A stretch of 64,000 nt of DNA from Candidatus Oxydemutatoraceae bacterium (GCA_965218975.1 OZ244717.1:1248001-1312000); one strand, 5' to 3'. Counted from the stretch's first letter, positions 7,640-47,708 are shown. The notes: generated by a model not told the origin, from the letters alone. Made by a program: numbers and translations.

Positions 7640-7769
7640 ACGGAAACTTAAAGTGTTGAAGTTTTACAACACTCATTATAAGTAATGTTTTTCGTGCACA
7701 TTGCATAAACCCTCGCCGGATGCTTGAATAATATCCGCTTGGTTTACCCAGTATGTATTAAATCGTACA
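7640..7769 (+). mobile_element. Highly decayed right end of an older IS481-like copy
   Basis: FYNTH-like coding remnant and terminal ATCGTACA matching the right ends at 9569 and 47674. Confidence 0.4.
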
Positions 7770-8074
7770 AGCGCCTGTACAGTGCCAGATACATGTGGGA
7801 TTCACGGCACGACTCAAAAAGGTAACCGATATGCAATATCAGCACATCGGCCACCGCATCAAAGGTTTCTATATGAGCCCATTTTGCTTCAAAAATAGAG
7901 GCTCATGAACACAACGGCTCAACAGAAATATGATGCCCTATTATTTTGGGAGGGTTGTAACTTCCGAACGCATTCAAGATCGGTCGCAGTACTTTGTACC
8001 GCTGGCGCCGGCGTTATCGCCGCACTGGCCTCAGTGCCTTACATGATCGCGGCAAAGCGCCGCGTAAGAGGCGC

Positions 8075-8641
8075 CGGCGGATTGTGCCGGATTGTCGGCA
8101 AAGTGCCTGTCGTCCATGACGCGACTGGGTTCTGTCAACAAGCTCCAGCCCCGACGTCCTTGTCGGGTCGTTCACCGCTGAAAACCAATTGGTTTTCCGG
8201 GCGCGTCTCACCCATGACGAGACTTGGTTCTGTCAATGAGCGCCAGCCCTGACGTCCTTGTCGAGTCGTTCGCCGCTGAAAACCGATCGATTTTCCGGGC
8301 GCGTCTCACCCTGCGCCAGGCAGAATTTCGGCAGCTTTGGCAAATCTCGGCAGCAGTAAAATCTTTGAGCTGATGAAACCGTTTTGTGTTTGTTGCCGTG
8401 TTGTCGGCGGATTGTGCCGGATTGTCGGCAAAGTGCCTGTCGTCCATGACGCGACTGGGTTCTGTCAACAAGCTCCAGCCCCGACGTCCTTGTCGGGTCG
8501 TTCACCGCTGAAAACCGATCGGTTTTCCAGGCGCGTCTTACCCATGACGAGACTTGGTTCTGTCAATGAGCACCAGCCCGACGTCCTTGCCGGGTCGTTT
8601 GCCGCTGAAAACCGATCAGTTTTCCGGGCGCGTCTCCCTGC
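8075..8641 (+). repeat. Four copies (8075-8213, 8214-8314, 8373-8543, 8544-8641) of a hairpin-rich 100-170 bp repeat
   Basis: Shared core GGTTCTGTCAA...GACGTCCTTG...GAAAACC....GGTTTTCC...GCGCGTCT. Confidence 0.9.
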
Positions 8642-8714
8642 CCGAGTGTCCGCACGATTGCGCGCCTGATCGCGGATGCGCCGGATAAAATGCGCTGTAT
8701 TCCGCAGCGGCTGA

Positions 8715-9188
8715 ATGCCAAAGGACAAACAAAACGACCGTTTAAGCGCCGTTGCAGGGCACGCAAGCCGAAACACTTCAAAGCACAGTAATCCGGGGCA
8801 TTGCATCGCCCTGGATACGATTGTGCGTTATCAGCACGGAGTGCGCCGCCACGTCTTAACGGCCATCGATGTCTATACCCGAATGGCAATAGCAACGGCA
8901 ACCAACCGCTGTAACAGCTGCAACGCAGCCGCATTCCTGCGCCTGACCCTGGCGGTGCTGCTGCAACCGGTAAAATATATTCTGACGGACGGCGGTAGTG
9001 AGTTTCAAGGACAGTTTGCTCGGCTCATCCGGGAATCACCCGTGATTGAGCAGTGGCTGACCTATCCCAAGTGTCCAAAAATGAACGCGCACATCGAGCG
9101 CTTCAACCGCACCGTCCAAGAAGATTGTATCGATCATGCAGAAGACCTGCTATTCGCCGATACGGAAGCATTCAATGACTGGTTATGA
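8715..9188 (+). pseudogene. IS481-like transposase, integrase core (rve) fragment
   Basis: IALDT, AIDVYTR, TDGGSEF, MNAHIERFNRTVQE DDE motifs; N- and C-termini cut off by repeat insertions. Confidence 0.85.
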
Positions 9189-9465
9189 AACCGTTTTGTG
9201 TTTGTTGGTGGATTTTCGGCGGATTGTGCCGGATTGTCGGCAAAGTGCCTGTCATCCATGACGCGACTGGGTTCTGTCAACAAGCTCCAGCCCCGACGTC
9301 CTTGTCGGGTCGTTCACCGCTGAAAACCAATTGGTTTTCCGGGCGCGTCTCACCCTGCTCATCCATGACGCGACTGGGTTCTGTCAACAAGCTCCAGCCC
9401 CGACGTCCTTGTCGGGTCGTTCACCGCTGAAAACCGATCGGTTTTCCGGTCGCGTCTCACCCTGC
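9185..9465 (+). repeat. Two further copies (9185-9358, 9359-9465) of the hairpin-rich repeat
   Basis: Near-identical to the 8373-8543 copy. Confidence 0.9.
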
Positions 9466-9574
9466 ACCGTCCTCATGCCGACAACGGACAGAAAGCACCG
9501 ATCCGAATGTTACTGCCGAACGCTTCCCCCGAAGCCCTTCAAAAATCCTATTTAGAGTGGCATCGTACAGCGCC

Positions 9575-9603
9575 TTGCATCTCGATAGAATTTAGGTTAT
9601 CTT
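9575..9603 (+). promoter_or_regulatory. Candidate sigma70 promoter upstream of leuA
   Basis: TTGCAT-N17-TATCTT. Confidence 0.55.
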
Positions 9604-9805
9604 AAAAAGATGATTAGACAATCAAACACCTTATTCTTTTTTTCGCAGAGTCCTTATTGTTTTCTGCGCTGTTTTCTGCGCACAGGATTACGACTGCCGC
9701 GGTGAGCGGTAGCTAAGAATAGCCGGCGGGCTTACACGTAAAATAAATACCCTTATTTTTTATTATCCAAGATGCCACACTTACAGTGTGGGCTGCTTAC
9801 AACAG

Positions 9806-11353
9806 ATGAAAGATAAAAGCAAACTAATTATTTTCGATACGACATTGCGCGATGGCGAGCAAAGCCCCGGTGCTTCAATGACAACCGAAGAGAAGCTACG
9901 TGTTGCTAAAATGTTGGAGCGAATGCGTGTAGACGTGATTGAAGCAGGTTTTCCGATTGCAAGCGGAGGAGATTTTGAAGCGGTTTGTCGAATCGCCGAG
10001 GAAATAAAAGACAGTAGAGTCTGCGGCCTTGCACGTGCATTAGATAAAGATATTGACAGTGCGGGACAGGCGTTGTCGGCAGCGGCGGCGCCTCGGATAC
10101 ATACCTTTATAGCAACATCAGATATTCATATGAAGAAAAAGCTCTGTATGACAAAGGAACAAGTGGTTGAGCGAGCGATTGCTTCTGTAAAAAAGGCAAG
10201 AAATTATACCGACGATGTGGAATTTTCCCCCGAAGATGCCGGACGCTCGGAAATTGATTTTCTATGCTATGTGATTGAAGCGGTGATTTCTGTCGGCGCG
10301 ACGACGATCAATATTCCGGATACGGTTGGCTACAGCATACCGGTGCAATTCGGCGCGATGATTAAAAATTTGATTGAGAAAGTGCCTAATTCCGACCGAG
10401 CTGTTTTTTCCGTGCATTGTCACAATGATTTAGGGCTAGCAGTTGCCAATTCTTTAGCAGCGGTTATGAACGGTGCACGTCAAGTCGAATGTACTATTAA
10501 CGGAATCGGAGAACGTGCCGGCAATGCCGCACTTGAGGAAGTTGTAATGTGTGTGAAAACGCGACAGGACATTTTTACTTGCGATACCAATATTGATACT
10601 CAGCATATTGTTTCGGCTTCCAAGTTAATTTCCAGTATCACCGGCTTCCCAGTGCAACCGAACAAAGCGGTGGTTGGTGCGAATGCGTTTGCGCATGAAT
10701 CGGGTATTCATCAGGATGGCGTTATTAAACAGCGTGAGACTTATGAGATTATGCGTGCCGAAGATGTTGGTTGGAATGAAAACCGTATTGTACTTGGCAA
10801 GCATTCGGGGAGACATGCTTTTCGGTTACGTCTTCAGGAATTAGGTATAGACCCCACAGATGAAGAGCTCAACAATATTTTCGTACGGTTTAAAGAGTTA
10901 GCAGATAAGAAACATGAAATTTATGATGAAGATTTACAAGCGCTTGTTTCAGAAGCAGGGTTTGACCGCGCATTTGAGCGTTATGATTTGGTTTCTATCA
11001 AAGTAACTGCGGAAACCGGTAAGACTCCCGATTCAACGGTGACATTGAGTATCAACGACAGAACACAAAGTTCAAGTGCTCCGGGAAGCGGCTCGGTTGA
11101 TGCAACATTCAAGGCAATTGAATCGTTGGTGGATAGTAACAGCGAATTGTTGCTTTATTCGGTTAATAACATCACGACCGGCACCGATTCGCAGGGAGAG
11201 GTTACCGTACGTCTGGGTAGAAACGGACGTATTGTTAATGGCTTAGGTGCTGATACTGATATTGTGATCGCTTCGGCGAAAGCTTATGTCAACGCATTAA
11301 ACAAATTAGAGAGCAATGTAAACCGAAGGCATCCCCAACGCGGTGATGTTTGA
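9806..11353 (+). CDS. leuA: 2-isopropylmalate synthase
   Basis: [38 protein letters not shown]; ATG 9806 preferred. Confidence 0.97.
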
Positions 11354-12071
11354 TTACTCTAAGAGGCGATTGCTTTATTTACATAAGATGGGTATTCCAT
11401 TTTATATCCGCAAAAACCTTACTTTGGCAGCTAAACAAAAGATACAGCCAATATCATCTTGGCAAGAACAAAGGCCAATGAATGATTCCGCGAAACAAGA
11501 CGGTTTACCTACGATATGGTTACAATTGTATTCGGAAATAAAGAAATGTACCAACTGCGCACTGCACCAGCGGCGCACTCAAGCGGTGCCCGGAGTCGGT
11601 GATATTCATGCCGACTGGATGCTCATAGGCGAAGCGCCAGGATTCGAAGAGGATAAAAAAGGCGAGCCGTTTGTCGGTCGCGCCGGACGGCTGCTAAATA
11701 AAATGCTGGCGGCAATCGGCCTTGATCGACGACAAGTATATATTACCAATGTTGTGAAGTGTCGCCCCCCGGAAAATCGCAACCCGCGTCCTGAAGAGAC
11801 GACTGCATGTGAAGATTATTTGCATCGGCAAATTCAAATGGTGAAGCCTAAAATTATTTTAGCGCTCGGCAGGATTGCTGCAAATGCATTATTAAATAGT
11901 AGCGCTCCGGTCGGGAAGTTACGCGGACGTGTTTATTATTATCAAGAATTAAAACTACCTATTGTGATCACTTATCATCCGGCATATCTGTTACGTTCTC
12001 CGCAGCAAAAACGCGCCGCATGGGATGACCTTAAGTTAGCGTGTAGGACAATCGGAATGGAAATATCATGA
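11343..12071 (+). CDS. Family 4 uracil-DNA glycosylase (Fe-S)
   Basis: [29 protein letters not shown] motifs. Confidence 0.93.
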
Positions 12072-12556
12072 GTGCGCTAGCTAGGGATATTCATGTCAAA
12101 GTTCGGCGAATGGCGGCGGAGGATTTACCCGCGGTTATGGATATTGAGAGGCGCGGTTATGAGTTTCATTGGAGCACGATTAACTTCAAAGAATGTTTGA
12201 CAACAGCTTGTGAGAGTATCGTTTTATTGTTAAATGATGAGATTATCGGTTACGGTATTATGATGATTGCGGTTGACGAATGTCATATTCTGAATGTATG
12301 TATTGATCCTGATTTTCAAAGGCAAGGTTATGGTTGCGCGCTATTACAAGAAATGATTGTGCATGCGATCGTTCTAGGCGCCGAATATGCGATTCTTGAA
12401 GTACGCTCGTCTAATATGCCCGCAATTAGCATGTATCAGTCTGAAGGCTTTGAACAAATCGGGTTGCGCCGCAAATACTATCCTGATTATGAAGGACGTG
12501 AAGATGCGTTGGTTTTTATGCGTCAATTGAAACCTTTATACGGAATGGAAGATTAA
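12068..12556 (+). CDS. rimI: Ribosomal protein S18 N-acetyltransferase
   Basis: GNAT motif QRQGYG, LEVRSSN, RRKYY, EDA. Confidence 0.92.
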   Translation: MSALARDIHVKVRRMAAEDLPAVMDIERRGYEFHWSTINFKECLTTACESIVLLLNDEIIGYGIMMIAVDECHILNVCIDPDFQRQGYGCALLQEMIVHAIVLGAEYAILEVRSSNMPAISMYQSEGFEQIGLRRKYYPDYEGREDALVFMRQLKPLYGMED

Positions 12557-12584
12557 CCAAAAAAAGAAAATTCTAGCATGGGCA

Positions 12585-13793
12585 ATGTACGACTGGGCAA
12601 ATTCAGCATTTGCCGTCGTTGTCCTATCGGGTTTTTTCCCCATTCTATATCGAGATTACTGGGCTGAGTCGCTTGCAAGCAAGGATGTTACCACCTCGTT
12701 GGCTATCGCGAATTCAACCAGTGGTATTCTGTTGATGCTGCTGTCGGTTTTCTTGGGTGCGATTGCTGATGTCGGCAATCGACAAAAACTTTTTTTAATC
12801 GTATGGATGAGTATAGGTGTTGGCGGCACGTTTGCGTTGGGAGCTGTGGCCGCCGGCGAGTGGATGTTAGTGCTAATTGTGTATGCGGTAGCAACCCTGT
12901 CGTTTATGATCGGCAATATATTTTATGACGCGATGATTGTTGATGTGAGCATTCCCGCGGAACGAGAACGGGTTTCATCGCTAGGTTATGCCGTGGGTTA
13001 TTTAGGAGGTGGTTTGTTGCTTGCCGGGATGAGTGCGCTTGTTTTATTCGCTGATCAAGTCGGTTTTTCAAGCGGAAAAAACGGACAAGTTTCGGCGATG
13101 CGCCTGAGTTTTTATGTAACAGGAATCTGGTGGTTGGTATTCACTCTGCCGTTAATTTTATTTATCCCAAATCGGAGACGAACCAGGATTGATTTCAAAG
13201 CGGCAGTGCATCGTTTTTTAAGCACCTTCCGCCTGCTTTCCGGACATTCAAATACCAAATGGTTTTTGCTCGCTTATTGGTTGTATATCGACGGCGTTGA
13301 TACTGTAATTCGGATGGCGGTTGATTACGGCAAAGTACTAGGTTTTTCATCCGGAGATTTAATTACCGCTCTATTGCTCGTACAATTTATCGGATTTCCG
13401 GGAACTTTGATATTCGGATTGATCGCTGAAAAAATTGGCGCTAAGCGCGCTGTTTTGTTCGCCGTCATTGGGTATGTAGGGATCTGCTTTTTTGGAGCTC
13501 TGGTTAAATCGTTAACCGGGTTTTATATGTTAGCGATAATGATTGCCCTCTTACAAGGCGGGATACAAGCGCAAAGCCGTTCGATTTTTTCAAAGTTGAT
13601 ACCGGTTAAAAATGCCGCTCAATTTTTCGGCCTATATAATTTGCTGGGGAGGTTTTCGGTAGTGGTCGGTCCTCTGCTGCTGAGTTTGGTCGGTGCGCTA
13701 ACGGACAATCCGCGTTTGGGTATTCTGTCGATTGTAGTGCTGTTTATTTTGGGAGGAATAATACTGTCACGTGTATCGGAGGCAAAAATTTAA
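12585..13793 (+). CDS. MFS transporter (UMF1/Atg22-like)
   Basis: MYDWANSAF, GYAVGYLGG, YWLYIDGV, SRS motifs; multiple TM segments. Confidence 0.88.
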   Translation: MYDWANSAFAVVVLSGFFPILYRDYWAESLASKDVTTSLAIANSTSGILLMLLSVFLGAIADVGNRQKLFLIVWMSIGVGGTFALGAVAAGEWMLVLIVYAVATLSFMIGNIFYDAMIVDVSIPAERERVSSLGYAVGYLGGGLLLAGMSALVLFADQVGFSSGKNGQVSAMRLSFYVTGIWWLVFTLPLILFIPNRRRTRIDFKAAVHRFLSTFRLLSGHSNTKWFLLAYWLYIDGVDTVIRMAVDYGKVLGFSSGDLITALLLVQFIGFPGTLIFGLIAEKIGAKRAVLFAVIGYVGICFFGALVKSLTGFYMLAIMIALLQGGIQAQSRSIFSKLIPVKNAAQFFGLYNLLGRFSVVVGPLLLSLVGALTDNPRLGILSIVVLFILGGIILSRVSEAKI

Positions 13794-13882
13794 GATCGAA
13801 TAATGAATTACCTTGAGCCTAGTTTAAAATAAGTCTGTGTAGCACTCGTTTGAATTTGCCTAAGCTTGCTAAGATCGATGGT

Positions 13883-16576: not shown

Positions 16577-16611
16577 GTTATAATGACAGGGAACTGAGAG
16601 ATTAGGCGTGT

Positions 16612-16935
16612 TCAGCGTTCTAATAGTTCAATTTTATTTTCTTTGTCCGCCCAATCGTCGGCGTCCGGCGGCGGGTCCTTCTTAACTGTGATAACCGGCC
16701 ATTGTAACGAAAGTTCCGCGTTCAATTTAAGAAAAAATTGTTTCTCCTCGCTTAATTCATCTTCGGCAACTATGGCATCAACCGGACACTCCGGAACGCA
16801 TAAAGTGCAATCGATGCACTCCTCCGGATCAATGGCAAGAAAATTTGGGCCTTCGTGAAAGCAATCAACCGGGCAAACCTCCACGCAATCGGTATATTTG
16901 CACTTGATGCATTTGTCGGTAACGACGTAACTCAT
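16612..16935 (-). CDS. fdxA: 7Fe ferredoxin (FdI type)
   Basis: [17 protein letters not shown] and [13 protein letters not shown]. Confidence 0.95.
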
Positions 16936-18252: not shown

Positions 18253-18307
18253 TGTTATACTTTCCGATAGAGCGCAATGTTCTACTAGAAAGATAGAGGA
18301 ATGATAG

Positions 18308-22789: not shown

Positions 22790-22874
22790 GCCGATGTGGT
22801 GGAACAGGTAGACACGCTGTCTTGAGGGGGCAGTGGCTTCGGCCGTGCCGGTTCGAGTCCGGCCATCGGCACCA
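22790..22874 (+). tRNA. tRNA-Leu (GAG)
   Basis: GCCGATG/CATCGGC acceptor stem, CTGTC-TT-GAG-GG-GGCAG anticodon arm, long variable arm, GTTCGAGTC, CCA. Confidence 0.96.
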
Positions 22875-23024: not shown

Positions 23025-23101
<77 letters not shown>

Positions 23102-23229: not shown

Positions 23230-23510
23230 TGTACGATGCCACCCTGGTAGGATTCTTGCAGGGTGAGACGCGCCCGGAAAACCGAACGGTTTTCAGCGGC
23301 GAACGACCCGACAAGGACGTCGGGGCTGGGGCTCATTGACAGAACCAAGTTGCGTCATGGACGACGTGTACTTTGCTAATAATCCGGCACAATCCACCGA
23401 CAACCCTGCTACCAAACACAAAAAGGTTTCAAATATTTCTGAGCTTATGCAGCATACCGGTTACCTTTTCGAGTCGTGCCGTGAGTCCCGTATGTATATG
23501 ACACTATGCA
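23230..23510 (-). mobile_element. Internally deleted IS481-like element carrying one copy of the hairpin repeat (23258-23431)
   Basis: TGTACGATGCCAC right end at 23230; left-end homology to 7776 at 23452-23510 and to 47274 at 23432-23451. Confidence 0.8.
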
Positions 23511-34116: not shown

Positions 34117-34212
34117 TAGAAACCTTTGATGCGGTGGCCGATGTGCTGATATTGCATGTCGGTCATCTTTTTGAGTTAGGCCGTAAGTCCCATATGTATC
34201 TGGCACTATACA
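34117..34212 (-). mobile_element. Isolated left end of IS481-like element
   Basis: Reverse complement closely matches 7776-7872 (TGTATAGTGCCAGATACAT...CATCAAAGGTTTCTA). Confidence 0.8.
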
Positions 34213-34218
34213 GTTGGT

Positions 34219-34261
34219 CCCAAACAACCCTCAAAAACCCGTAGTGTACTGACATTATGCA
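34219..34261 (+). mobile_element. Decayed right end of IS481-like element
   Basis: CAAACAACCCTCAAAAACCCG..TGTACTG similar to 35481-35521. Confidence 0.55.
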
Positions 34262-34263: not shown

Positions 34264-34890
34264 TTATTGCACAGATCTCTGAACCATTATTATGGCTGGC
34301 ACCAGAATACAATACATAGATCCCACTATTAGAGTACCGAGAAACAGAAACACGATAAAAGCTATAGAAGAGCGCAGTTTAGATACACTGTTAAGTTTGC
34401 GTAATGTATCCCATACGAATAGTAACCAAGCCGGTGCAGATATGGTTATCACCAAAAATAATGTATTCCTAATATCAATATCTGATTTCGTCACTTTAAG
34501 GTAACTTCCGATAAAGAACCAAATTATGGTAGTGACAACGATAAAAACGCCTATAAAGTAAGCCCAAGGAACAAAAATATTTTGTAATGTTGCTTTCCCG
34601 CCAACAATAAGCCAACTCAGTTTCAGAAATAATATAGATAAAACAACGGCCAGGAGACTTTCTACAGCCTCAATCGCTAGATATTCATTGAGATCGCTAG
34701 GTCCAGGTCCAAGTAACAGTGGAAATTCAACAAGTGAAGCAATAATAATAGATAAAACGAGGAACCGGAACGCATCTTTAAATGTAGAGTCTGTACTTAT
34801 GTTTTTTGATTCTATAAAGGCATTAGGCCCAGAAAATATCGCTATAAGTTCCTTAAAGTACTTTGCAAGATAAGACAAGAGTGCAGTCAT
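34264..34890 (-). CDS. Yip1-like multi-pass membrane protein
   Basis: 208 aa, about five TM segments, P..F near N-terminus, GGKA loop. Confidence 0.65.
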   Translation of the reverse strand: MTALLSYLAKYFKELIAIFSGPNAFIESKNISTDSTFKDAFRFLVLSIIIASLVEFPLLLGPGPSDLNEYLAIEAVESLLAVVLSILFLKLSWLIVGGKATLQNIFVPWAYFIGVFIVVTTIIWFFIGSYLKVTKSDIDIRNTLFLVITISAPAWLLFVWDTLRKLNSVSKLRSSIAFIVFLFLGTLIVGSMYCILVPAIIMVQRSVQ

Positions 34891-34998
34891 AACAGCATTT
34901 TCTACAAGATACTAAACAGAGGTTCAGAGGTTGCTTCATCGACAGCTATACTGTTTGGGTGATTCTACCACGCTCTGGGAGGGGTATTGGCAAGCGGA

Positions 34999-35100
34999 TG
35001 TACGATGTCGTCCGTATGTGTGAGTGTGCCGGCAACAGATTTAGCCTCCGTCGTGTTACTAACGCCAAGAATCTTCTTCAGGATTTTGTATAACTCAATT
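34999..35100 (-). mobile_element. Decayed right end of IS481-like element
   Basis: TGTACGATG at 34999 matches the first 9 bp of the right TIR; reads ...HRT like the other ends. Confidence 0.45.
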
Positions 35101-35397: not shown

Positions 35398-35424
35398 GTA
35401 TCCTCGTAACGCTCGGTCCCGGTA

Positions 35425-35521
35425 ATGCGCACGACCGCACGCTGGTTTGGGACAACAGCCTTCATACCGGATGTTGATTTCAAACAGCCCTCAAAAGCCC
35501 GAAATGTATTGGGCACGTACT
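35425..35521 (+). mobile_element. C-terminal transposase remnant and right end of IS481-like element
   Basis: ARPHAGLGQQP...PEMYWART (RPHxxLG motif) ending CACGTAC. Confidence 0.65.
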
Positions 35522-35527
35522 ATGGAT

Positions 35528-35556
35528 TTGTCGCATGTCGTACAGTACTCTATACT
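35528..35556 (+). promoter_or_regulatory. Candidate sigma70 promoter for DUF2235 gene
   Basis: TTGTCG-N17-TATACT, RBS GAGGA downstream. Confidence 0.55.
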
Positions 35557-35591
35557 CATACACTCATAAATAACAGAGAGAGGAACGTTTA

Positions 35592-36743
35592 ATGACTGAT
35601 AAAAATGAACCCAGAACGCTGGTTTTCAGCTTTGACGGAACCGGCAATGAACCGAGTGATATGGGGCATTTTACCGAAGACGAGAGCATTACCAATATTC
35701 TGAAGTTACATATCCTGATGGGGGGCGGAATCGCAACGGATAACACCGACACAAAAACCCCTAGCGGATCTCTCCAAACCAACTACTATTACAACGGTAT
35801 CGGTACTCGGGAAGGAGGTCGGCAAATCCCGCTTTTGGGTCGTTTATGCTCGGCAGGGCGGAAGTTTATCAATATGATGCTTGCTCCCAGTTCCGGTGAT
35901 GCGAAGAGTATTCTTAACGAAGCCAAAGACGACTTTCAAAAATCATATAAAAACGGAGATAAGTTGGTCGTGTTCGGATTCAGCCGCGGCGCTGCGTTAG
36001 CGCGGAAATTTGCCAGTATTATCCTTGCCGCTAATTCAAAGGTTCGTGTGTCGTTTTTAGGGGTCTTCGATACCGTCGCGGCAATGAGCGGAATACACCG
36101 CAAAGGCGAACGTATCAGCAGCGACGTAGTTTTCGAAAACGGAACGCTAAATGAAAGAATTGAAAAGGCAGTGCATATCGTATCAATTGACGAGTACCGG
36201 GTACCGTTCACGCCGACGCTGATAAACGCAGATGAAAAGAACCCCGAACGCATTACCGAAGTCTGGTTTCCCGGCGTTCACAGCGATGTCGGGGGCGGAT
36301 ACTGGTTTGACGGTTTGTCCGATATTGCGCTTGAATTTATGATCAAGCAATGCCGCTCGGCATTGGATGATCATATTTCGATTCAAGACGGAAGAAACAT
36401 TAAAGGTGTCGGACAATTGTTAACAGATCAAGGTTCCGCTCTTGAAGGGCTGGAGGTTGATGATATCGCCGTCAGGCCTATGGCACACGGTGTGATGCAT
36501 ACGCACCACGGCTTATTATCGAAAATGCAAGACCAAGAACCGAGATCGGTGCATGTATGTGTTAACGATCGGCCCAGCCAAGACTTACCCGTGCTGCACG
36601 AGGCGGTAAAGGAACGATTTGATAAGGTGGCCAGCTACCGCCCGCCCGCCCTGCGAGGCTTGAAATTTAGATTGATGAAAGACGGCACAATCACAAAGAA
36701 TACAATACATGGTATCAGCGAATTGCGCGGATCAGTTCAGTAG
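35592..36743 (+). CDS. DUF2235 alpha/beta hydrolase (Tle1 phospholipase-like)
   Basis: FDGTGN, YY.GIGT, FGFSRGA, GVFDTV, WFPGVHSDVGG. Confidence 0.9.
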   Translation: MTDKNEPRTLVFSFDGTGNEPSDMGHFTEDESITNILKLHILMGGGIATDNTDTKTPSGSLQTNYYYNGIGTREGGRQIPLLGRLCSAGRKFINMMLAPSSGDAKSILNEAKDDFQKSYKNGDKLVVFGFSRGAALARKFASIILAANSKVRVSFLGVFDTVAAMSGIHRKGERISSDVVFENGTLNERIEKAVHIVSIDEYRVPFTPTLINADEKNPERITEVWFPGVHSDVGGGYWFDGLSDIALEFMIKQCRSALDDHISIQDGRNIKGVGQLLTDQGSALEGLEVDDIAVRPMAHGVMHTHHGLLSKMQDQEPRSVHVCVNDRPSQDLPVLHEAVKERFDKVASYRPPALRGLKFRLMKDGTITKNTIHGISELRGSVQ

Positions 36744-37388: not shown

Positions 37389-37403
37389 GCGGGGGTAACG
37401 GCA

Positions 37404-37739: not shown

Positions 37740-37742
37740 GCA

Positions 37743-37932: not shown

Positions 37933-37964
37933 AGTAAAACAGACTAAAAAAGGAGCTTGGCACT

Positions 37965-39092
37965 ATGGCTGATCCAATAAAAAACATCTTTATAAGCCAT
38001 ATTCATGAGGAGGAGGATGAAGGTCTCAACAAACTCAAGAATTTGATCAAAGATAAAGAAATGATTCCCCAGGACTATTCAATCAATGAAGAGTGCATCA
38101 AGTCACGTATTCTGCAATCCGGCGCATTGATTGTTTATATCTCCCCTAAAACCAAGGAAAGCTAGATTGTCAACTGGGAAATTGAGTATGCCCACAGACA
38201 AGGTAAAAGAATTGTAGGGGTCTGGGCACAAGATGAAGCTGGCTGTGAGGTCCCGGAAGCATTGGACAAATATGCTGATGCCGTAGTTGGCTGGGCAGAT
38301 AACCGTACAGATAACCATATCATTAAAGCTATAAACGGAAGTATTGACGTCTGGGAAAATCCGAATGGCGCAAAATGCGCGCCACGGGATATTGACGGCC
38401 CGGAAAATCCGGACGGTACAAAATGCGCGCCCCACGAGATATCGAGCGATATAAATGCTAATGTGAGACTATTTTCTTATATTGTCACTGATGACTATGG
38501 CTTCGCCCCAAACCCTTTTTATGGGGTATGTACGCTGGCCACCTGCAAACCAGAAATTCGGAAAGAGGCCTCTGTCAGAGACTGGGTAATTGGTACTGGT
38601 AGCAAGCGCAAATGCAAACAAGGACGCCTCGTTTATGTTATGCGTGTGACGGAGACAATGACATTTAATGAATACTGGAAAGATGATCGGTTTCAACGAA
38701 AAAAGCCAAACTTGAGAGGAAGTTGGAAACAAGCATCTGGTGACAACATCTACTTCTGGGATGATAAGAAGTGGCAGCAACAGAAATCTTACCACGGTTG
38801 CGATGATGTTAAGCACGACACACAGACTAATAGGGTGCTGCTTAGTACGAAGAAGTATGCGTATTGGGGCGGCTCAGGGCCAAAAATACCTAAAGAGTTT
38901 CGTGACTATAACGGGGTTGATATCTGCACTGGCCGAGGTTGAAAATATAAGTTTTCTAAAGCGTTGGTCAATGACTTTCTCACTTGGTTGTGTTATCAGA
39001 TGTGTCATCTGGATAAAAAAGGCTACCTTGGTACACCCTCGGACTGGCCCTGTTGCCAAAGACCGGAAAAACGAATCGACTGTCAAGGGTGA
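37965..39092 (+). pseudogene. TIR-like (DUF1863/ThsB-type) domain fused in frame to Nmad2 domain, interrupted by TAG 38163-38165 and TGA 38940-38942
   Basis: NIFISH, LIVYISPKT, VNWEIEYA..GKRIVGVW; SYIV.DDYGFAPNPFYG.CTLATCKP.IR; one continuous frame. Confidence 0.8.
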
Positions 39093-39171
39093 GTTGCTTT
39101 TACGCAACTATATACGAGAAACCGAGCCGACAGACAGCTGACTCCCTAAGGATGATCTGCGCCCGGTTCTT

Positions 39172-40218: not shown

Positions 40219-40221
40219 GAC

Positions 40222-40872: not shown

Positions 40873-40882
40873 GACATTAACT

Positions 40883-41095
40883 TGTACTGTTCAGATACAT
40901 ACGGAACTCATGGCACGGACTCAAAAAGTGTCCGATATGCGGTATTGGCACATCGGTCATCGCATCAAAGGTTTCTATTGTAAAATGATCGTTTTAGCTC
41001 CAAAGATGGAGGCTATGATAACAACCGGTGCCAACAAGAGAAACACGATGCCTTCATTTTGGGAAGGTTGTAGCTTCCGGACATATTCAAGGTCA
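40883..41095 (+). mobile_element. Decayed left end and transposase N-terminus of IS481-like element
   Basis: Homologous to 7776-7985 (TGTACTGTTCAGATACAT...HIGHRIKGFY...FWEGC). Confidence 0.8.
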
Positions 41096-41366
41096 GCCGA
41101 CGATCAGTGCGATGTACTGAGCTACGAGACCACGGTCACCGCCAAAGTCACCGACACACATCCGGCTTCAATGTCGTTGATCCGGAATCCCGCTGGTACA
41201 GCATCTATGCGTTGGACGCTCTCGGCCAGATGATACACATCGCTCGTGACCAGATTGGAAGCGGTTTCAATATGATAAATTAACAATATGGGACGCTGCA
41301 TGACACCGGTATATATTGTCGTTTAGAGAAAACGGCGAATTGTAGAGTTACAAGGTCAAAGCGACT

Positions 41367-42299
41367 ATGGAATTGAAGCCTTCTATAACCTCACCTGCTA
41401 GTGAACCATCCGAATGTTTCCGGAATACCGACGGTGGGTGGGCATTGCCGCTAGAAATCGGAACGCAGCGAATATGTCGGTGCAAAGTCAACCATATCAA
41501 TTGTTTGAGCGCCAAGGAGTGGCTGAAGAATCAGTTGGGAGTATGGAGGTTCAACTACGAGGACAGGGACATCCGCGACAAGGCAGTTCATCCGGCCACG
41601 TACCCTATCGCTCTTGCACGGCGCGTCATAGAGCAATTTACCCATGAAGGCGAATTAGTGCTTGATCCGTTCGTGGGCAGCGGAACGTCGTTGCTGGCTG
41701 CGCAGGATACGAACCGGAATGCCGTCGGATTTAATTTGTCGTCAGCCTATGTGGACCTGTGCCGTAAAAGGACTGCGCAACAAAGCTTAGTTCAACATGC
41801 TCAGCAAGTTGCAGTGCAAGATGATGCTCGGAACATACCGAAATATCTGGCCGAGGAAACTGTCAGCCTCATCGTCACATCCCCGCCGTATGCTAATCTT
41901 CTGAATCGCAAGCGACAAAATAAATCCAGGCGCGACCGACGCAATGACCAGCTTGACAAGGTTGAGCAGTATTCGCAAGACCCGCGAGACTTAGGAACGA
42001 TGAACCTCGATTTGTATACGGAGAATATGGAAGCGATCTTTGCATCCCTGTTGCCGTTGCTTCGTCCGAAAGCGCATTGCGTTATTAATGTTCCTGATAT
42101 GTGGTGGGAGAATGAACGGATTACAATCCATGTTGCATTGATTGAAGAATTGCGCCGCTGCGGCTACGAACTTCGCAATATCATCATTTGGGATCGCACA
42201 AACATTGTAAATCGGATTGGAATCTTCGGTTGGCCGAGCAACTACATCACGATGGGCACCACATTCGAATATCTGTTGGATTTCTGGCGGCCGGAATGA
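41367..42299 (+). CDS. Orphan N4-C/N6-A DNA methyltransferase
   Basis: HPATYP, VLDPFVGSGT, IVTSPPY, IIWD. Confidence 0.88.
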   Translation: MELKPSITSPASEPSECFRNTDGGWALPLEIGTQRICRCKVNHINCLSAKEWLKNQLGVWRFNYEDRDIRDKAVHPATYPIALARRVIEQFTHEGELVLDPFVGSGTSLLAAQDTNRNAVGFNLSSAYVDLCRKRTAQQSLVQHAQQVAVQDDARNIPKYLAEETVSLIVTSPPYANLLNRKRQNKSRRDRRNDQLDKVEQYSQDPRDLGTMNLDLYTENMEAIFASLLPLLRPKAHCVINVPDMWWENERITIHVALIEELRRCGYELRNIIIWDRTNIVNRIGIFGWPSNYITMGTTFEYLLDFWRPE

Positions 42300-42396
42300 A
42301 TTATTTCACCAAAGCGCTCAGAAAGTTACGAAAGGCAGTAGCAAGCAATCCACAGGTGAGTTCAGAAGCGTAATAATTTCATAGGAATTACTATAA

Positions 42397-43662
42397 ATGT
42401 TCAGATTTATACATGCTGCAGACATCCACCTCGATAGTTCACTACACGGCTTGGAGCGATATGAAGGAGCTCCAGTAGATGAGATCCGAAGCGCCACCCG
42501 CCGAGCTTTTGATAATTTAATCAAACTTGCAATTGATGAAGAAGTGGCATTTGTGCTGCTGGCCGGGGACTTGTACGACGGCGACTGGAAGGATTACAAC
42601 ACGGGGCTCTATTTTGTAGAACGTATGAGTAGGTTGCGAGAAGAAGATATCCGCGTTTTCATTGTGGCAGGAAACCATGATGCTGCCAGCCAAATCACCA
42701 AACACCTTCAATTACCTGAAAACGTAACTCTATTTTCAACCAAGAATCCGGAAAGGATTGACCTAGATGACCTAAATGTAGCTGTATATGGGCAGGGCTT
42801 CGCAAAACGGGCAGTAATGGACGATCTTTCACAGGCATATCCACAAGGGAACTCACAACTCTTTAATATTGGCCTGCTGCACACTTGCCTAGAGGGTAAG
42901 GTAGGCCATGAGCCCTATGCGCCTTGCACTGTAGAAGGGCTACGATCCAAAGGATACCAGTACTGGGCTCTGGGTCATGTCCATAAACGGGAGGAGGTAA
43001 GTCAGGATCCATGGATTGTATTTCCTGGGAATATCCAGGGACGACACATCCGTGAGGCAGGTCCAAAGGGCTGTACCTTGGTTACAGTTGAAAACGGAGA
43101 GATTGTGGAGCTGAAACACTGTGAACTGGATGTGATGCGCTGGACTCTGTGTGAACTTGATGTTTCTGTTAGTGAGACAGTGGATGATGTCTATGAGCAA
43201 GTTCGTAAAGGACTGCAGACTGAATTAGATGCTGCCGAAGGGAGGCCAATTGCTGTTCGCTTAGTCTTACAAGGAGAATGTTCTGCCCATTCAGCATTAC
43301 AAGCGGGTCGGGACCGCTGGGTACAGGAGTATCGTGCCCTGGCAACTGGACTCGGTGGAGCAGGTGTCTGGCTTGAGAAGGTTATCATCAAGGTAACACC
43401 GTCTGTTTCCACTGATGTGATTCTTGCGCGCAATGATGCGTTGGGGGGCCTAATGCGTACTATCCGAGATATGAAGCTGGATGCCACGGCTTTAGAGGGT
43501 CTCGCCGATGAGATATCCGCACTTCGACAGAAACTTCCTGCTGAACTGTTGGGAGGCGATGACCCCTTTGATCCTACCAAACCGGAATTACTTAAAGATG
43601 CCCTAGAGGATATCAAAGAGCTTCTCGTTAACCGCCTGTTGTCCACGGAGAAAGGGCCATGA
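42397..43662 (+). CDS. Mre11/SbcD-like metallophosphoesterase (YhaO type)
   Basis: HAADIHLD, AGDLYD, GNHD, LLH, WALGHVH, FPGNIQGRH. Confidence 0.92.
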   Translation: MFRFIHAADIHLDSSLHGLERYEGAPVDEIRSATRRAFDNLIKLAIDEEVAFVLLAGDLYDGDWKDYNTGLYFVERMSRLREEDIRVFIVAGNHDAASQITKHLQLPENVTLFSTKNPERIDLDDLNVAVYGQGFAKRAVMDDLSQAYPQGNSQLFNIGLLHTCLEGKVGHEPYAPCTVEGLRSKGYQYWALGHVHKREEVSQDPWIVFPGNIQGRHIREAGPKGCTLVTVENGEIVELKHCELDVMRWTLCELDVSVSETVDDVYEQVRKGLQTELDAAEGRPIAVRLVLQGECSAHSALQAGRDRWVQEYRALATGLGGAGVWLEKVIIKVTPSVSTDVILARNDALGGLMRTIRDMKLDATALEGLADEISALRQKLPAELLGGDDPFDPTKPELLKDALEDIKELLVNRLLSTEKGP

Positions 43663-46600
43663 TGATTCATGAGTTGTGTCTTGCCGCATTCGGGCCCTTT
43701 ACCGATAAAGTATTGGTTTTTGATGGGGCAAGGCTCCATATTGTCTACGGACCTAATGAGGCAGGGAAGAGTGCTGCTCTTCGGGGTTTGAAAGCCCTGT
43801 TGTATGGCATAGAAGAACGTACTCTCGACAACTTCCTTCACGTCAACGACAAGCTCCGTATACATGGTTATTTACGGAAAGCTAATGGACATGAGCTTAA
43901 GTTGGTTCGGCGTAAAGGCCGAAAAAATACGTTATTAACTCTTGATGGTGAAGTACTTAGTGGTGAGGTGCTGGTACCCTTTCTTCATGGCGTTACTTCG
44001 GAGCTCTTCGAGACGCTTTTTGGGATTGATCACAGGGCATTGGTACAAGGGGGGCAAGAAATTCTTGAGCAGAAGGGAGAAGTCGGACAGGCACTTTTTT
44101 CGGCAGCGCTTGGCAGCCAAGCACACACTGTACTTGCACAACTGAATGAAGAGGCTGATGCTCTTTTTCGACCAAGGGGCTCAACACAGAAGATCAATTC
44201 AGCGTTAAAGTCGTATGCAGAATTTCGCAAGAAGATCAGGGAGCAATCCCTCTCATCCGGAAAATGGGATGAGCAACGCCATGTTTTGGAGCAAACGATG
44301 AAGGAACTGGAGAAAATTCAATCTCAACTAGCGGACAACAGGATTAAGGTAAACCATTTAAAGCGTATCCGGCGAGTTTTACCGAAACTTGCCAAGCGTC
44401 GTGAACTTCTTCAGAAATTGGAATTGTTAAAAGATGTCGTCCTCCTTCCGGATGATTTTTCAGGCCGTCGGCAAAGGGCAATGAATAAGTTGGAAACAGC
44501 TCAGGTCATAGTTGGGAAGGCAAGCCCTCGTCTCGAAGAATTGCAGGAACGGCTAGGAGGGTTATCAACAAACCAAGAATTGTTAGATCAGGCAGAAAAC
44601 ATTGAAGATCTACATGCGCGCCTTGGAGGTCATCGAAAAGCACAGCAAGACCGACCATATCTTGAATCAGAAGTCAAACAACTACTGACAGATACTGAAT
44701 CCATACTCAAAGAGATTCGTCCTGATCTCGAACTAAAGGATATCGAGGAATTACGTCCAGTATTAACTAGACGGCAGGCTATAACCAAGTTGGCCAGTAA
44801 GAATACCAGACTGAATGCTAGTATAGAACAGTTAGAGTCCAGTTTGCGTGAAACAGAAACGCGGTTGAGGAAAGCCCGCAAAGAGCGTGATGAGGTCCCC
44901 GCGTCAGGCTCTACAGACACATTGCATCGAACGATTGCAGCAGCTAGGAAACAGGGAGAATTAGATGCCTTGGTTAAATCCACTCAAGGTCAGCTTACAA
45001 GCCTGCAGACAGATTACACTGCTAGTCTCTCGCGACTCACGCTTTGGGATGGTGAATTGGAAGATTTAGCTGGTTTGAAGATGCCCAACCGAGAAAGCAT
45101 TAATCAATTTGAAAAGGTATCAGACAAAATTGAAAACAATTTTCAGCGGTTTGAAGAGAAGAGAAAAGAGACGATTAATTCCCTACAAAATATCTCGCAG
45201 AGACTTGATGAGATTGAGCGTATAGGGAAAGTACCTACGGAGGCAGCCCTCACTAATGCCAGATCCGAACGTGATCAGGTGTGGCAGTTGCTACGTCGGC
45301 AGTGGGTGGAAGGTGAAGACGTGTCAGCCGAGGCAAGTTATCACCAAGGTGAAGGAACATTGCCGGATGTATTCGAAAACCGGCTTGAAAATGCCGATGA
45401 AATGTCTGATCGTTTGCGCCGTGAAGCGGACCGGGTCCATGAATTGGCAAACCTTCAGTCCAAGCAGGAAGGTGGGCTAAGGCAAGTAGAGAAGATAGAC
45501 AAGCAGCTTGAGGCAACTACCGCCGAAAAGGACCAGCTTGTTACTGACTGGCAGCAATTGTGGACGCCTTGTCAGATTGTTCCGCGCAGTCCGCGTGAGA
45601 TGCGCGCTTGGCTGGATAATTTCGAAAAACTTCGTGAGCGGGTGGAACAGTTGAATTTGCTTCGCCAGAAAGTGAAAGAGCTTCAGCAAAATCGTAAGAT
45701 GCGTATCCAGCTGCTTAATGAGCAGTTAGCAGGGCTGGGAAGGGCGGGCTCGACGTCGGGGGAGCTTGAAACCGTACTCTTGGAATGCGAAACGTTTGCT
45801 AAACAGCTTGATGGTGCCAAACAGAAACGCGATTCGTTGGATAAGGAGGCCAAAGACCGGGAAATAACTGTTGAATCGTTGAGAGAAGAACATCGACTGG
45901 CAACCGAAAAGCTTGAAGCATGGAAGACGCAGTGGGGTGAGTTGATGCAGGGTCTTGGTCTGCAAAGCGAGACTTTACCATCAGAAGTTGACGATTTCAT
46001 TGATAAGGTCAAGGAATTATTCTCAAAACAGCACGAAGTAGAAAAACTGCGAATACGCATCAATGCTATCGACACAGATTCAACGTCTTTCTGCAGTCAG
46101 GTGAAGGTCATGGTTGCTACGATTGCCTTGGAACTTCTTAGTGATTTGTCTGCAGATGATGCCGTCATGCGTCTCAATTCGCTGTTATCGGAAAACCGAT
46201 CAAAACAAACAAAGCGACAACAGATTGAAGAGCAAGTTGAACAAGTGAAGCAGGAAATACAGGAGTCGAAAGGATCTATCCGTACTATGACGGATCTGCT
46301 GGATGCATTATGTGTAGAGGCGAAATGTGGTAACCACAATCAGCTAGAAGAGGCCGAACGCAGGTCGTCAGATCGTCTTAGAATCAAAGAGTCAATCAAT
46401 ACGGTTGAACAAGGGGTTCTGGAGACAGGCGAAGGTATAACCATTGCAGAGTTGGAGGCCGAAGTTGAAGGGATAAAACCGGATATGCTGCCCGGGCAAA
46501 TCAAAGAGTTGAATAATAAGATTGATAATGAACTCGAGCCAAAACGGACTGAACTGGCGGAGAAAAAGGGACGTGAAGAAAGGGAACTTGAGCGCATGGA

Positions 46601-47147
46601 TGGCAGTGATGACGTGGCGGAGCTTGCTGACCAAGCCCACGCTATCCTTGCCAATATTCGTTCAGAGGCTGAACGCTATATTCGAGTAAAACTCGCCAGA
46701 AAGATATTGTATGACCAGATTGAGCTTTATCGAAAAGAAAACCAAGGGCCGCTGGTCAAGCGTGCCAGTGAGCACTTTTCCAGACTGACGCTTGGGTCAT
46801 TTTATAGGCTCATTGCTGATATTAATGATAAGGATGAGCCTGTTCTTGCTGGGATCCGGTCAACTGGGAAGCAAGTATATGTGGAAGGAATGAGCACCGG
46901 AACTCGAGACCAGCTATATCTTGCATTGCGTTTGGCCTCACTAGAAAAATATATGGAAAGGTCCGAGTCGATGCCTTTCATTGTTGACGATATACTTGTG
47001 GACTTTGATGATGATCGTTCACAAGCAGCATTGAATTCCTTGGCGGAATTAGCTGAAAAGACACAAGTTATCCTATTTACTCATCACGTGCAGGTTGTTG
47101 AGCAGTCAAAGCAACTGAATGCGCCGGTACAGGTGCATGAGTTGTAG
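43659..47147 (+). CDS. Rad50/SbcC-like coiled-coil ATPase (YhaN type)
   Basis: GPNEAGKS, long coiled coil, MSTGTRDQLYLALRLA, IVDDILVDFDD, FTHH. Confidence 0.92.
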   Translation: MMIHELCLAAFGPFTDKVLVFDGARLHIVYGPNEAGKSAALRGLKALLYGIEERTLDNFLHVNDKLRIHGYLRKANGHELKLVRRKGRKNTLLTLDGEVLSGEVLVPFLHGVTSELFETLFGIDHRALVQGGQEILEQKGEVGQALFSAALGSQAHTVLAQLNEEADALFRPRGSTQKINSALKSYAEFRKKIREQSLSSGKWDEQRHVLEQTMKELEKIQSQLADNRIKVNHLKRIRRVLPKLAKRRELLQKLELLKDVVLLPDDFSGRRQRAMNKLETAQVIVGKASPRLEELQERLGGLSTNQELLDQAENIEDLHARLGGHRKAQQDRPYLESEVKQLLTDTESILKEIRPDLELKDIEELRPVLTRRQAITKLASKNTRLNASIEQLESSLRETETRLRKARKERDEVPASGSTDTLHRTIAAARKQGELDALVKSTQGQLTSLQTDYTASLSRLTLWDGELEDLAGLKMPNRESINQFEKVSDKIENNFQRFEEKRKETINSLQNISQRLDEIERIGKVPTEAALTNARSERDQVWQLLRRQWVEGEDVSAEASYHQGEGTLPDVFENRLENADEMSDRLRREADRVHELANLQSKQEGGLRQVEKIDKQLEATTAEKDQLVTDWQQLWTPCQIVPRSPREMRAWLDNFEKLRERVEQLNLLRQKVKELQQNRKMRIQLLNEQLAGLGRAGSTSGELETVLLECETFAKQLDGAKQKRDSLDKEAKDREITVESLREEHRLATEKLEAWKTQWGELMQGLGLQSETLPSEVDDFIDKVKELFSKQHEVEKLRIRINAIDTDSTSFCSQVKVMVATIALELLSDLSADDAVMRLNSLLSENRSKQTKRQQIEEQVEQVKQEIQESKGSIRTMTDLLDALCVEAKCGNHNQLEEAERRSSDRLRIKESINTVEQGVLETGEGITIAELEAEVEGIKPDMLPGQIKELNNKIDNELEPKRTELAEKKGREERELERMDGSDDVAELADQAHAILANIRSEAERYIRVKLARKILYDQIELYRKENQGPLVKRASEHFSRLTLGSFYRLIADINDKDEPVLAGIRSTGKQVYVEGMSTGTRDQLYLALRLASLEKYMERSESMPFIVDDILVDFDDDRSQAALNSLAELAEKTQVILFTHHVQVVEQSKQLNAPVQVHEL

Positions 47148-47273
47148 TCAAGCGGAATGAGGGATCTGAATGACAAACTATAAAGTGCATAAATGGATGT
47201 ACCAAAAAGCTTTTGATTAGGAACATGTGGTTGGAAGGACTCCAATGCTGGCGTTCCATTGTCTTCGCGAGGT

Positions 47274-47674
47274 TGTACAATGCATAAGCTCAGAAACATT
47301 TGGCATTCCTGCCGACAGGAGGTGTGGCCTTGCAAATCCGACATATAGGCTATCGAATCCGGGGTTTTACCGGATCGCTAAAATCGGGCATAGTTGGGAT
47401 ACTATGGCTTACGATGCAAAACAACGACTCAAAATTCTCACCTTTTGGCAAAATCACGGCACAGCGGCTGGACGAGACTTTGGTTCTGTCAACAAGCCCC
47501 AGCCCCGACGTCCTTGTCGGGTCGTTCGCCGCTGAAAACCGATCGGTTTTCCGGGCGCGTCTCACCCTGCACCGCCTTCATGCCGGCAACGGACAGAAAG
47601 CACCGATCCGAATGTTACTGCCGAACGCTTCCCTCGAAGCCCTTCAAAAATCCCATTTAGAGTGGCATCGTACA
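47274..47674 (+). mobile_element. Internally deleted IS481-like element with hairpin repeat (47471-47570) replacing most of the transposase
   Basis: TGTACAATGC ... GGCATCGTACA; HIGYRIRGF and AKQRLKILTFWQNHG N-terminus; tail near-identical to 9464-9569. Confidence 0.85.
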
Positions 47675-47679
47675 AGTTC

Positions 47680-47708
47680 TTGCATTACTTAAAAAAATAC
47701 TATACGAT
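47680..47708 (+). promoter_or_regulatory. Candidate sigma70 promoter of rimP-nusA-infB
   Basis: TTGCAT-N17-TACGAT. Confidence 0.6.

Follow-up and report, generated by a model that had tools for sequence, protein, structure and literature searches.

To our knowledge, site-specific transposons are rare. The Ty3 retrotransposon integrates at RNA polymerase III start sites and Tn7 at attTn7, and the target of the insertion sequence (IS) IS481 is NCTAGN. Here we describe a family of decayed IS481-like elements in Candidatus (Ca.) Oxydemutatoraceae bacterium (GCA_965218975.1), represented by a copy at positions 7776-9569 of a 64,000-nucleotide stretch of the genome (OZ244717.1:1248001-1312000; hereafter the window, whose coordinates are used unless genome positions are specified), and find that the right ends of this family tend to lie one 5-bp target duplication upstream of promoter -35 hexamers. 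By analogy, such sites may be likened to those of Ty3 and Tn7, whose distance and orientation are fixed relative to a site that a host protein or transcription complex occupies, though Ty3 is a eukaryotic retroelement and Tn7 uses multi-protein machinery, whereas here a single small transposase appears sufficient.

Among smaller bacterial elements, canonical IS481 and IS1002 share with the family described here a transposase of the DDE type encoded by a single open reading frame (ORF) and TGT...ACA termini. The IS1202 group falls within the IS481 family tree (PMC10045372), and a copy-and-paste model for the IS481 family is cited in PMC13733257 (statements on these papers, on Siguier et al. and on PMC10948607 refer throughout to the parts available to us). 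In the ISAba32 subgroup of the IS1202 family, as at the sites reported here, exactly 5 bp separate an element end from a site bound by protein, a 5-bp duplication is made and orientation is fixed (Siguier et al., bioRxiv 10.1101/2022.12.17.520857), so that the comparison with the IS1202 group drawn in an initial model-generated annotation of the window (the sequence-only reading) was apt. The two are likened by geometry alone: the ISAba32 subgroup targets a XerCD site (xrs/dif) and its proximal end is the left one, whereas the family here places its right end next to a -35/-10 promoter and so departs from the ISAba32 arrangement.

A decayed IS481-like element upstream of leuA

The window copy and its flanks resolve into the following features.

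7776-9569, plus strand: decayed IS481-like element copy, 1794 bp, with left repeat TGTACAGTGCCAGATACATG... and right repeat ...GGGTGGCATCGTACA
7771-7775, strand not applicable: left copy of the target-site duplication, GCGCC, the same five bases as at 9570-9574
9570-9574, strand not applicable: right copy of the target-site duplication, GCGCC, which the sequence-only reading had treated as a spacer
9575-9603, plus strand: candidate leuA promoter, with -35 hexamer TTGCAT (9575-9580), a 17-bp spacer and -10 hexamer TATCTT (9598-9603)

Because GCGCC stands both before the left end and after the right end, the presumed spacer is a target-site duplication, and the -35 box beyond it thus belongs to the target. 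The leuA gene follows at 9788-11353 (assigned by Pfam). Transposase remnants within this copy are frameshifted and split by arrays of a ~98-nt repeat. The ORF at 8715-9188 (157 amino acids) has an IS481 transposase model as its best NCBIfam match (77 bits, partial) and scores 30.2 bits against Pfam rve, below the cut-off of 32.6.

An exact 5-bp duplication is kept by five of the 37 left/right pairs in the genome (CCCTT, ACTTA, GCGCC, TCTAT and ACTGA; chance per match ~1/1024), its loss from the other 32 presumably reflecting recombination between copies or decay. Counting the first base beyond the right end as +1, 5' to 3' along the flank, all five duplication-bearing elements have a -10-like hexamer that starts at +29 or +30, and only one has TTG; four of these hexamers are TATAAT or TATACT and the window's TATCTT matches at 4/6. 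The promoter is part of the target and not of the element. Contigs from four runs break at the IS ends (7803 and 9540) and none joins 7775 to 9570. The 30 nearest genomes belong to other genera, with leuA ~66-69% identical, and are too distant for aligning intergenic DNA; the best named match of LeuA, 75% identical, comes from a metagenome-assembled genome labelled Ca. Oxydemutatoraceae (Gammaproteobacteria).

No intact transposase was found in this genome. All local copies are decayed, frameshifted or interrupted, and the longest open stretch around tblastn matches, at 330 codons, lacks an N-terminus and starts within a unit of the ~98-nt repeat. Intact relatives from other genomes have the architecture of the IS481 family, with helix-turn-helix (HTH) domains HTH_28, HTH_23 or HTH_32, rve and rve_3 in one ORF of ~346-365 amino acids; the catalytic residues D180, D238 and E273 are invariant across 10 aligned relatives, as is the motif YPKCPKMN. 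Two of the relatives align over the full length of the NCBIfam IS481 model (NF033577), which is their best match, ahead of IS3. Their scores (179 and 157 bits) are below the model's cut-off of 224 bits, and we therefore call the group IS481-like, a divergent clade. The termini are of the TGT...ACA type with imperfect inverted repeats (TGTACAGTGCC... and ...GGCATCGTACA), and the ends of the relatives start with TGCAT or TGAAT and finish with ...ATACA. The 5-bp duplication falls within the range of the IS481 family (2-15 bp), most members of which make 6-bp duplications (PMC10045372). We read the repeats as the decayed remains of an IS481-like insertion sequence whose intact relatives measure ~1.08-1.14 kb and carry TGT/TGC...ACA ends and one DDE (rve) gene.

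In 10 of 11 relatives the transposase reading frame meets no stop inside the element and reads through the right repeat (ending ...GWTHT, or ...GWHRT in the window copies), and in five of the 11 the stop codon is the TGA of TTGA(c), at +7 to +9.

Right ends across the genome are in register with promoters

When the genome, a single contig of 2.08 Mb, was searched by blastn for the terminal 80 nt of the right end, 96 matches were obtained, which correspond to 93 right ends and 90 distinct flanks. These flanks have T at +6 in 63/90, T at +7 in 43/90 and G at +8 in 45/90. TTG starts at +6 in 25 flanks, compared to 0-4 at each of the other offsets from +1 to +30 and to 2.1 in every 90 random genome positions (binomial 4e-20), and at least five of the six bases of TTGACA are matched at +6 in 14 flanks versus 0-2 at other offsets. 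A -10 signal accompanies this motif: TAnnnT starts at +29 in 31/90 and at +30 in 14/90, and the G of an extended -10 element is present at +27 in 30/90. Exactly 17 bp beyond the +6 hexamer, a match to TATAAT of at least 5/6 occurs in 21/90 flanks versus 0.39 expected (p = 3e-30), and a combined -35 plus -10 score of at least 9/12 is reached in 24/90 versus 0.14 expected. In this genome, the position of the -35 hexamer is more tightly fixed than that of the -10 hexamer. The sequence-only reading had placed right ends 5-6 bp from a TTGC or TTGT motif and proposed a genome-wide test for an excess of TTG and for a -10 box 17 bp beyond it; the adjacency and both enrichments are borne out, and the interval is exactly 5 bp, the length of the target duplication.

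Left ends provide a comparison within the same genome. Among 52 left ends read outward, TTG is found at +6 in six (two of which are old tip scraps and two a single duplicated locus) and a -10 hexamer in one (Fisher test of right versus left ends: 0.03 for TTG, 0.0005 for -10). With no comparable signal at left ends, the association is thus specific in both position and orientation. Right ends outnumber left ends, 93 to 52, and this surplus may have arisen because a deletion would harm the adjoining promoter or because the ends now contribute to it.

We further find that the -10 signal extends to flanks in which the -35 hexamer is poorly conserved. Of the 65 flanks without TTG at +6, 24 have a -10 hexamer (at least 5/6) at 16-18 bp from +6, versus 2.2 on average and never more than 5 at control offsets (p = 5e-19). 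Where TTG is present at +6, a -10 hexamer is found in 13 of 25 flanks (52%), versus 232 of 12,768 (1.8%) other non-coding TTG sites. A search with a hidden Markov model of the right end added about ten relics, including one at 23230, with an in-register -10 hexamer discernible by eye in three or four.

Genes that follow the right ends are consistent with these promoters being real. A tmRNA starts 57 nt, and a tRNA-Asn 47 nt, beyond right ends. Pfam searches of 20 co-oriented downstream ORFs, used in place of a crude test of ORF orientation, gave families in 13, with most matches beginning at or near the N-terminus; among them are ribosomal proteins L25, S20 and L21, thioredoxin, AhpC/TSA, BolA, Rrf2, LysR and catalase. 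The core promoter is left intact, with genuine housekeeping genes or RNAs following it, as the sequence-only reading had suggested in describing a safe-harbour strategy, a term that is itself an interpretation.

Intact and young relatives share the geometry

The sequence-only reading had asked for intact homologous elements in other genomes, and these show the same arrangement. The 157-amino-acid fragment from the window identified 35 loci in other genomes. One metagenome-assembled genome labelled Ca. Oxydemutatoraceae (G031) contains an element of 1081 bp, with 41-47% identity to the window DDE fragment, in copies that are mutually 98.5-99.9% identical and that retain exact 5-bp duplications in 8 of 11 cases. 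The hexamers that come after right end and duplication in this genome include TTGCAA, TTGACG, TTGCGA and TTGTCA, and those found 16-18 bp beyond them are of the TATAGT type. In the G031 flank set (43 matches, of which 30 loci were taken, giving 31 distinct flanks), TTG occurs at +6 in 11/31 and a -10 hexamer (at least 5/6) at +28 to +30 in 10/31.

Single-copy relatives come from Ca. Multivoradales, Uhrbacteria, Nealsonbacteria, Azambacteria, other Patescibacteria and uncultured Gammaproteobacteria. Ungapped scoring of inverted repeats gave spurious end pairs for these elements and was replaced by a search for the conserved tip motif plus a duplication. TTG is found at +6 in 8 of the 10 that have a recognizable tip and flank. 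In six, a left end of the TGCAT or TGAAT type adjoins an exact 5-bp duplication, which delimits elements of 1084-1144 bp. Tips assigned by eye and lacking duplication support were left uncounted (L030, L034, L041, L044 and L045, in which five bases are followed by TTG, and the ambiguous L032, L039 and L040). In these six relatives, as in the five local pairs and the eight G031 copies, the duplication separates the element from the hexamer, which accordingly lies outside the element.

A sample drawn across phyla was assembled by the tip pattern ATATGTNNTGGACGCATACA alone, with flanks unseen and one genome per species, and comprises 75 loci with 76 distinct flanks. Hosts include Saccharibacteria and other members of the candidate phyla radiation (CPR), SUP05/Thioglobus-type and other Gammaproteobacteria, Bdellovibrionales, Lachnospiraceae, Thermoanaerobaculia, Desulfobacteraceae, Endomicrobia and others. 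TTG is present at +6 in 46/76 flanks (at most 10 at other offsets), TTGA in 39/76 and T in 63/76, while a TATAAT match of at least 5/6 is present at +29 in 29/76 (at most 3 elsewhere). Single-base conservation follows suit, with T at +29 in 55/76, A at +30 in 56/76, T at +34 in 57/76 and G at +27 in 40/76. Aligned on the transposon end, the cross-phylum flanks thus yield a promoter logo of textbook form.

Right-end tips followed by bacterial-type TTGACA/-10 flanks also occur on three records labelled Pacearchaeota archaeon (L315, L321 and L026, from DPANN bins); these are possibly misbinned CPR DNA.

ISKpn28 is an active relative with insertions at promoter-like sites

ISKpn28, an IS481-family element (ISfinder/NCBI name) of Klebsiella pneumoniae that is found on Klebsiella plasmids, encodes a transposase 37% identical to the window's 157-amino-acid fragment. 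The right-end tip of the ISKpn28 family (...ATATGTGGTGGACCCATACA, from one copy, on a K. michiganensis plasmid) is related to that of the window family, and this copy is followed by the duplication CCTCC and then by TTGCAA, 17 bp and CATACT. The annotated transposase coding sequence of this copy extends 23 nt past the element end. ISKpn28 differs in reading YPYTPKMN where the 10 relatives have the invariant YPKCPKMN before the catalytic E, and the copies described here differ from ISKpn28 in being all dead, in carrying ~98-nt repeat arrays and in their terminal sequences.

ISKpn28 makes a 5-bp direct repeat, and of the 11 ISKpn28 loci in K. pneumoniae K255, nine have such a repeat (PMC13733257, Table 3). 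Directly after the repeat at these nine loci, TTG is present in five and T in eight, on the assumption that the flanks are printed in IS orientation. The same study reports K255 recombinants in which ISKpn28 had inserted de novo into nlpD, oriented in the same direction as nlpD and rpoS; the repeat is GGTGG and the right flank reads TTGCTTCACA. In the part available to us, the phrase "target site" is absent and "promoter" appears only in a gene name; targeting is undescribed there.

Comparison with other nlpD genes places this insertion. GGTGG TTGC[TG]T N17 TATTCT is present in 17 of 80 Enterobacteriaceae nlpD loci, several of which read TTGCTT CACA, as printed for K255. The E. coli K-12 nlpD gene reads TTGCGT N17 TATTCT, and its -10 hexamer stops 6 nt short of the published start of PrpoS, which is located 567 nt upstream of the rpoS ATG (PMC10948607). 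The nlpD site thus matches a mapped promoter, with the de novo ISKpn28 copy one 5-bp repeat upstream of its -35 hexamer and within a coding region; the K255 site itself is deduced from 25 printed bases, again taking the printed flanks to be in IS orientation.

Proposed recognition of promoters by the transposition machinery

Geometry, orientation, 5-bp duplication, the place of the promoter in the target and generality across phyla are shown by the sequences themselves. That they arise from genuine promoter-directed integration is very likely. What exactly is read is less certain: we lean, at somewhat better than even chances, towards polymerase or sigma rather than DNA alone, RNA polymerase contact being a step that we infer. 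The sequence-only reading had proposed -35 boxes or promoter-bound RNA polymerase as the target; the geometry it described is supported, with the polymerase the likelier of the two.

Taken as a whole, the observations are probably best explained by promoter-guided insertion via the RNA polymerase holoenzyme. The family integrates by a 5-bp staggered cut directly ahead of the -35 hexamer in promoters of the sigma70 type, with the right end always towards the promoter and the core promoter left intact. The transpososome would dock on promoter-bound holoenzyme where the contact between sigma region 4 and the -35 box has its upstream edge (about -41 to -36). The site would be chosen on the whole promoter and not on a DNA word, and the asymmetry of the polymerase complex would set orientation. 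A direct preference for T at the cut may add to guidance by the polymerase. A fuller picture, in which a clade that spans CPR to Klebsiella uses the holoenzyme as a landing beacon (sigma region 4 being the probable contact) and is so adapted to this target that it lacks its own stop codon and relies on the TGA in TTGACA, is offered tentatively, as we judge it slightly less probable than not.

The strongest alternative, which we consider unlikely though worth serious attention, is direct DNA readout, in which the transposase, for example through its N-terminal HTH, would read a TTGAC-like word by the cut; the -10 signal would then be secondary, with good -35-like words being mostly real promoters. 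T at +6 is the strongest position both in this genome (63/90) and across phyla (63/76), the -35 register is very sharp (the 14 TTGACA-like flanks at +6 versus 0-2), TTGA occupies +6 in 39/76 cross-phylum flanks and the transposases have HTH_28, HTH_23 and HTH_32 domains, all of which fit a transposase that reads bases. The in-register -10 hexamers in 24 of 65 flanks without TTG are difficult to accommodate in such a model, as is the gap between other non-coding TTG sites and IS-adjacent ones in how often a -10 follows (1.8% versus 52%). Moreover, the young G031 copies and the laboratory ISKpn28 event leave selection little time to create the -10 association. A related candidate, in which the target resembles the element's own left end (TGTACA versus TTGACA), was rejected, as the logo reads T-T-G and not T-G-T and the -10 is in register.

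Retention bias is very improbable. Near-random insertion followed by survival only where harmless, just upstream of promoters, would suit a dense genome (85% under long ORFs by a rough mask) in which every copy is old and decayed. The single-base register (25 flanks at +6 versus 0-4 elsewhere) and the strict orientation argue otherwise, the same pattern is present in 98.5-99.9% identical copies with intact duplications, the de novo ISKpn28 copy lies inside nlpD and neutral intergenic sites away from promoters are unused. Retention by selection thus cannot account for a single-base register and fixed orientation that are shared by young copies and a laboratory event.

We attach next to no probability to the element carrying the TTG hexamer or a whole outward promoter, or to the box being a host regulatory site: an ungapped window repeat (D3) does extend to 9580 and 47685 and so takes in TTGCAT, and right ends do outnumber left ends, but an element-borne motif is excluded by the 5-bp duplications, in that the five bases before the hexamer vary by site and match the left flank and sequences beyond the hexamer are unrelated between sites, and a host site is at odds with a box that runs inward into transposase coding sequence (...GWHRT / ...GWTHT).

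Several observations weigh against promoter-guided insertion via the holoenzyme. The low proportion of local pairs with a duplication (5/37) means that most local empty sites cannot be reconstructed. About 40% of local flanks lack a clear instance of either motif (42/90 score below 7/12), and the relic at 23230 and the site at 34261 (described below) do not fit the promoter geometry. Downstream ORF orientation gives a crude, weak and non-discriminating test, with co-oriented ORFs of at least 60 amino acids following 64/90 right ends versus 53% of random positions and ORFs of at least 100 amino acids following 43/90 versus 37%. In contrast to a plain promoter logo, T at +6 exceeds T at +7 and G at +8, and this excess hints at direct base contact. 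Finally, the cross-phylum frequencies of TTG (61%) and TTGA (51%) are such that a transposase HTH that reads the -35 hexamer could explain much of the pattern.

Novelty and implications

New here are the ~90-copy gammaproteobacterial fossil record, the argument from -10 hexamers without TTG, the 76-site cross-phylum sample and the link between ISKpn28 and PrpoS. The literature searched, which included the available parts of PMC13733257, PMC9208149, PMC10045372 and 10.1101/2022.12.17.520857 and had subscription journals, ISfinder/TnPedia pages and supplements outside its scope, yielded nothing on the targeting of promoters or -35 boxes by elements of the IS481 type and no transposon that homes to ordinary bacterial promoters. 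Should the proposed mechanism hold, the family would represent the first known case of transcription machinery directing a bacterial transposon to its sites, much as Ty3 is directed to Pol III genes.

Promoter targeting would also provide a route by which a 2-Mb genome could accumulate ~90 IS copies without gene killing. Regulation would be rewired in the process, as UP elements and upstream activator sites would be cut from the core promoter and IS read-through added. In many uncultivated lineages, apparent "conserved boxes" by -35 hexamers would be transposon ends and not regulator sites, and IS ends would serve annotators as a free promoter marker. A compact enzyme with a defined insertion position and orientation relative to promoters might, in addition, make a possible tool. 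As ISKpn28 is active in a culturable enterobacterium, the question is directly testable.

Further sites and repeats in the window

Additional element ends and associated motifs in the window are as follows.

47482-47674, plus strand: solo right-end relic, 94% identical to 9377-9569
47675-47708, plus strand: AGTTC, -35 hexamer TTGCAT (47680-47685), 17 bp and -10 hexamer TACGAT (47703-47708), a candidate rimP promoter
35463-35522, plus strand: decayed right end of a second subfamily (...TGGGCACGTACTA)
35523-35556, plus strand: TGGAT, -35 hexamer TTGTCG (35528-35533), 17 bp and -10 hexamer TATACT (35551-35556)
34999-35009, minus strand: decayed right-end tip (GACATCGTACA), facing left
34957-34998, minus strand: TCCGC (34998-34994), TTGCCA (34993-34988) and TGgTAGAAT ~20 bp further on, upstream of the ORF 34890-34264
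34213-34261, plus strand: badly decayed right-end relic, followed by ATTTA TTGCAC
34120-34212, minus strand: left-end relic (genome 1282212)
23230-23400, minus strand: right-end relic with its tip at 23230-23240 and the flank ACGGT ACAATT, without an in-register -35 or -10
40892-40978, plus strand: left-end-like relic (repeat family D4), 78% identical to 7786-7872
7762-7769, plus strand: scrap of 8 nt from the tip of a right end (ATCGTACA), separated by 6 nt from the left end of the leuA-proximal element

On re-reading, the leuA site at 9569 and the rimP site at 47674 (rimP itself being at 47805-48272 by Pfam) hold as the sequence-only reading gave them, as do the -10 hexamers at exactly 17 bp in three cases (TATCTT, TACGAT and TATACT) and the exceptional status of 23230. 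Other sites called in that reading stand in part. The TTGTCG promoter does precede an ORF of the former DUF2235 family (35592-36743, 383 amino acids; PF09994, a Tle1-like phospholipase catalytic domain), with the element end better placed at 35522 than at 35521 and the intervening bases TGGAT; a short-query search with this second-subfamily end gave no copy besides itself. At 34999, TCCGC and TTGCCA do lie upstream of an ORF, with TAGAAT at 20 bp and not 17, and the 208-amino-acid product of this ORF (34890-34264, minus strand), described as Yip1-like, has no Pfam family at 1e-5. The end at 34261 is decayed and followed by ATTTA and TTGCAC as stated; because this hexamer lies inside the 3' end of the opposing minus-strand ORF 34264-34890, a promoter here is doubtful.

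Among right-end matches within the window, an exact 11-mer at 841-851 was rejected as a chance match within an AMP-binding enzyme gene, and GGCATCGTACA with up to two mismatches gave 14 matches in the window alone versus 13.3 expected, which is no enrichment.

Scraps of right-end tips, 8-13 nt in length, adjoin current element ends at genome positions 1862871 (where the scrap is similar to that at 7762-7769), 221241, 858146, 1233773 and 236361 and also at L336 in the relatives' set. Two consist of ATCGTACA plus AGC[GA]CC immediately before a left end. Circle or tandem junctions may have left these scraps behind, or else one promoter may have been struck repeatedly.

The ~98-nt unit contains two small palindromes (CCCGACGTCCTTGTCGGG and GAAAACCGATCGGTTTTC) and occurs at 8075-9498 and 47429-47603 in the window as well as genome-wide, with 476 blastn matches, of which 124 span nearly the whole unit; an array holds 6 units at most. 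Arrays stand at three places within IS copies, and the unit also stands alone; it looks like a separate miniature repeat that entered the IS before the IS spread.

Other mobile elements are interleaved with the family. Some IS copies (genome 417061 and 1330498) carry another transposase gene inserted in them, with N-terminus MYLREKYDPERGRTRLQIVRS..., and the region upstream of the solo end at 47674 (47274-47480) is part of another IS-like element, with a promoter-like stretch and N-terminus MAYDAKQRLKILTFWQNHG. The left end of the latter (...GGCACTCC..CCGACAGGAG...) recurs flanking right ends at genome 416969, 1204347 and 926986, and the elements are thus nested.

Elsewhere in the window, RNase P RNA (class A, 321 bits) is encoded at 52988-53338 and two tRNA genes are located at 22790-22871 and 23025-23098. 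A 48-nt unit is present twice in tandem at 38342-38437, with the two copies 79% alike.

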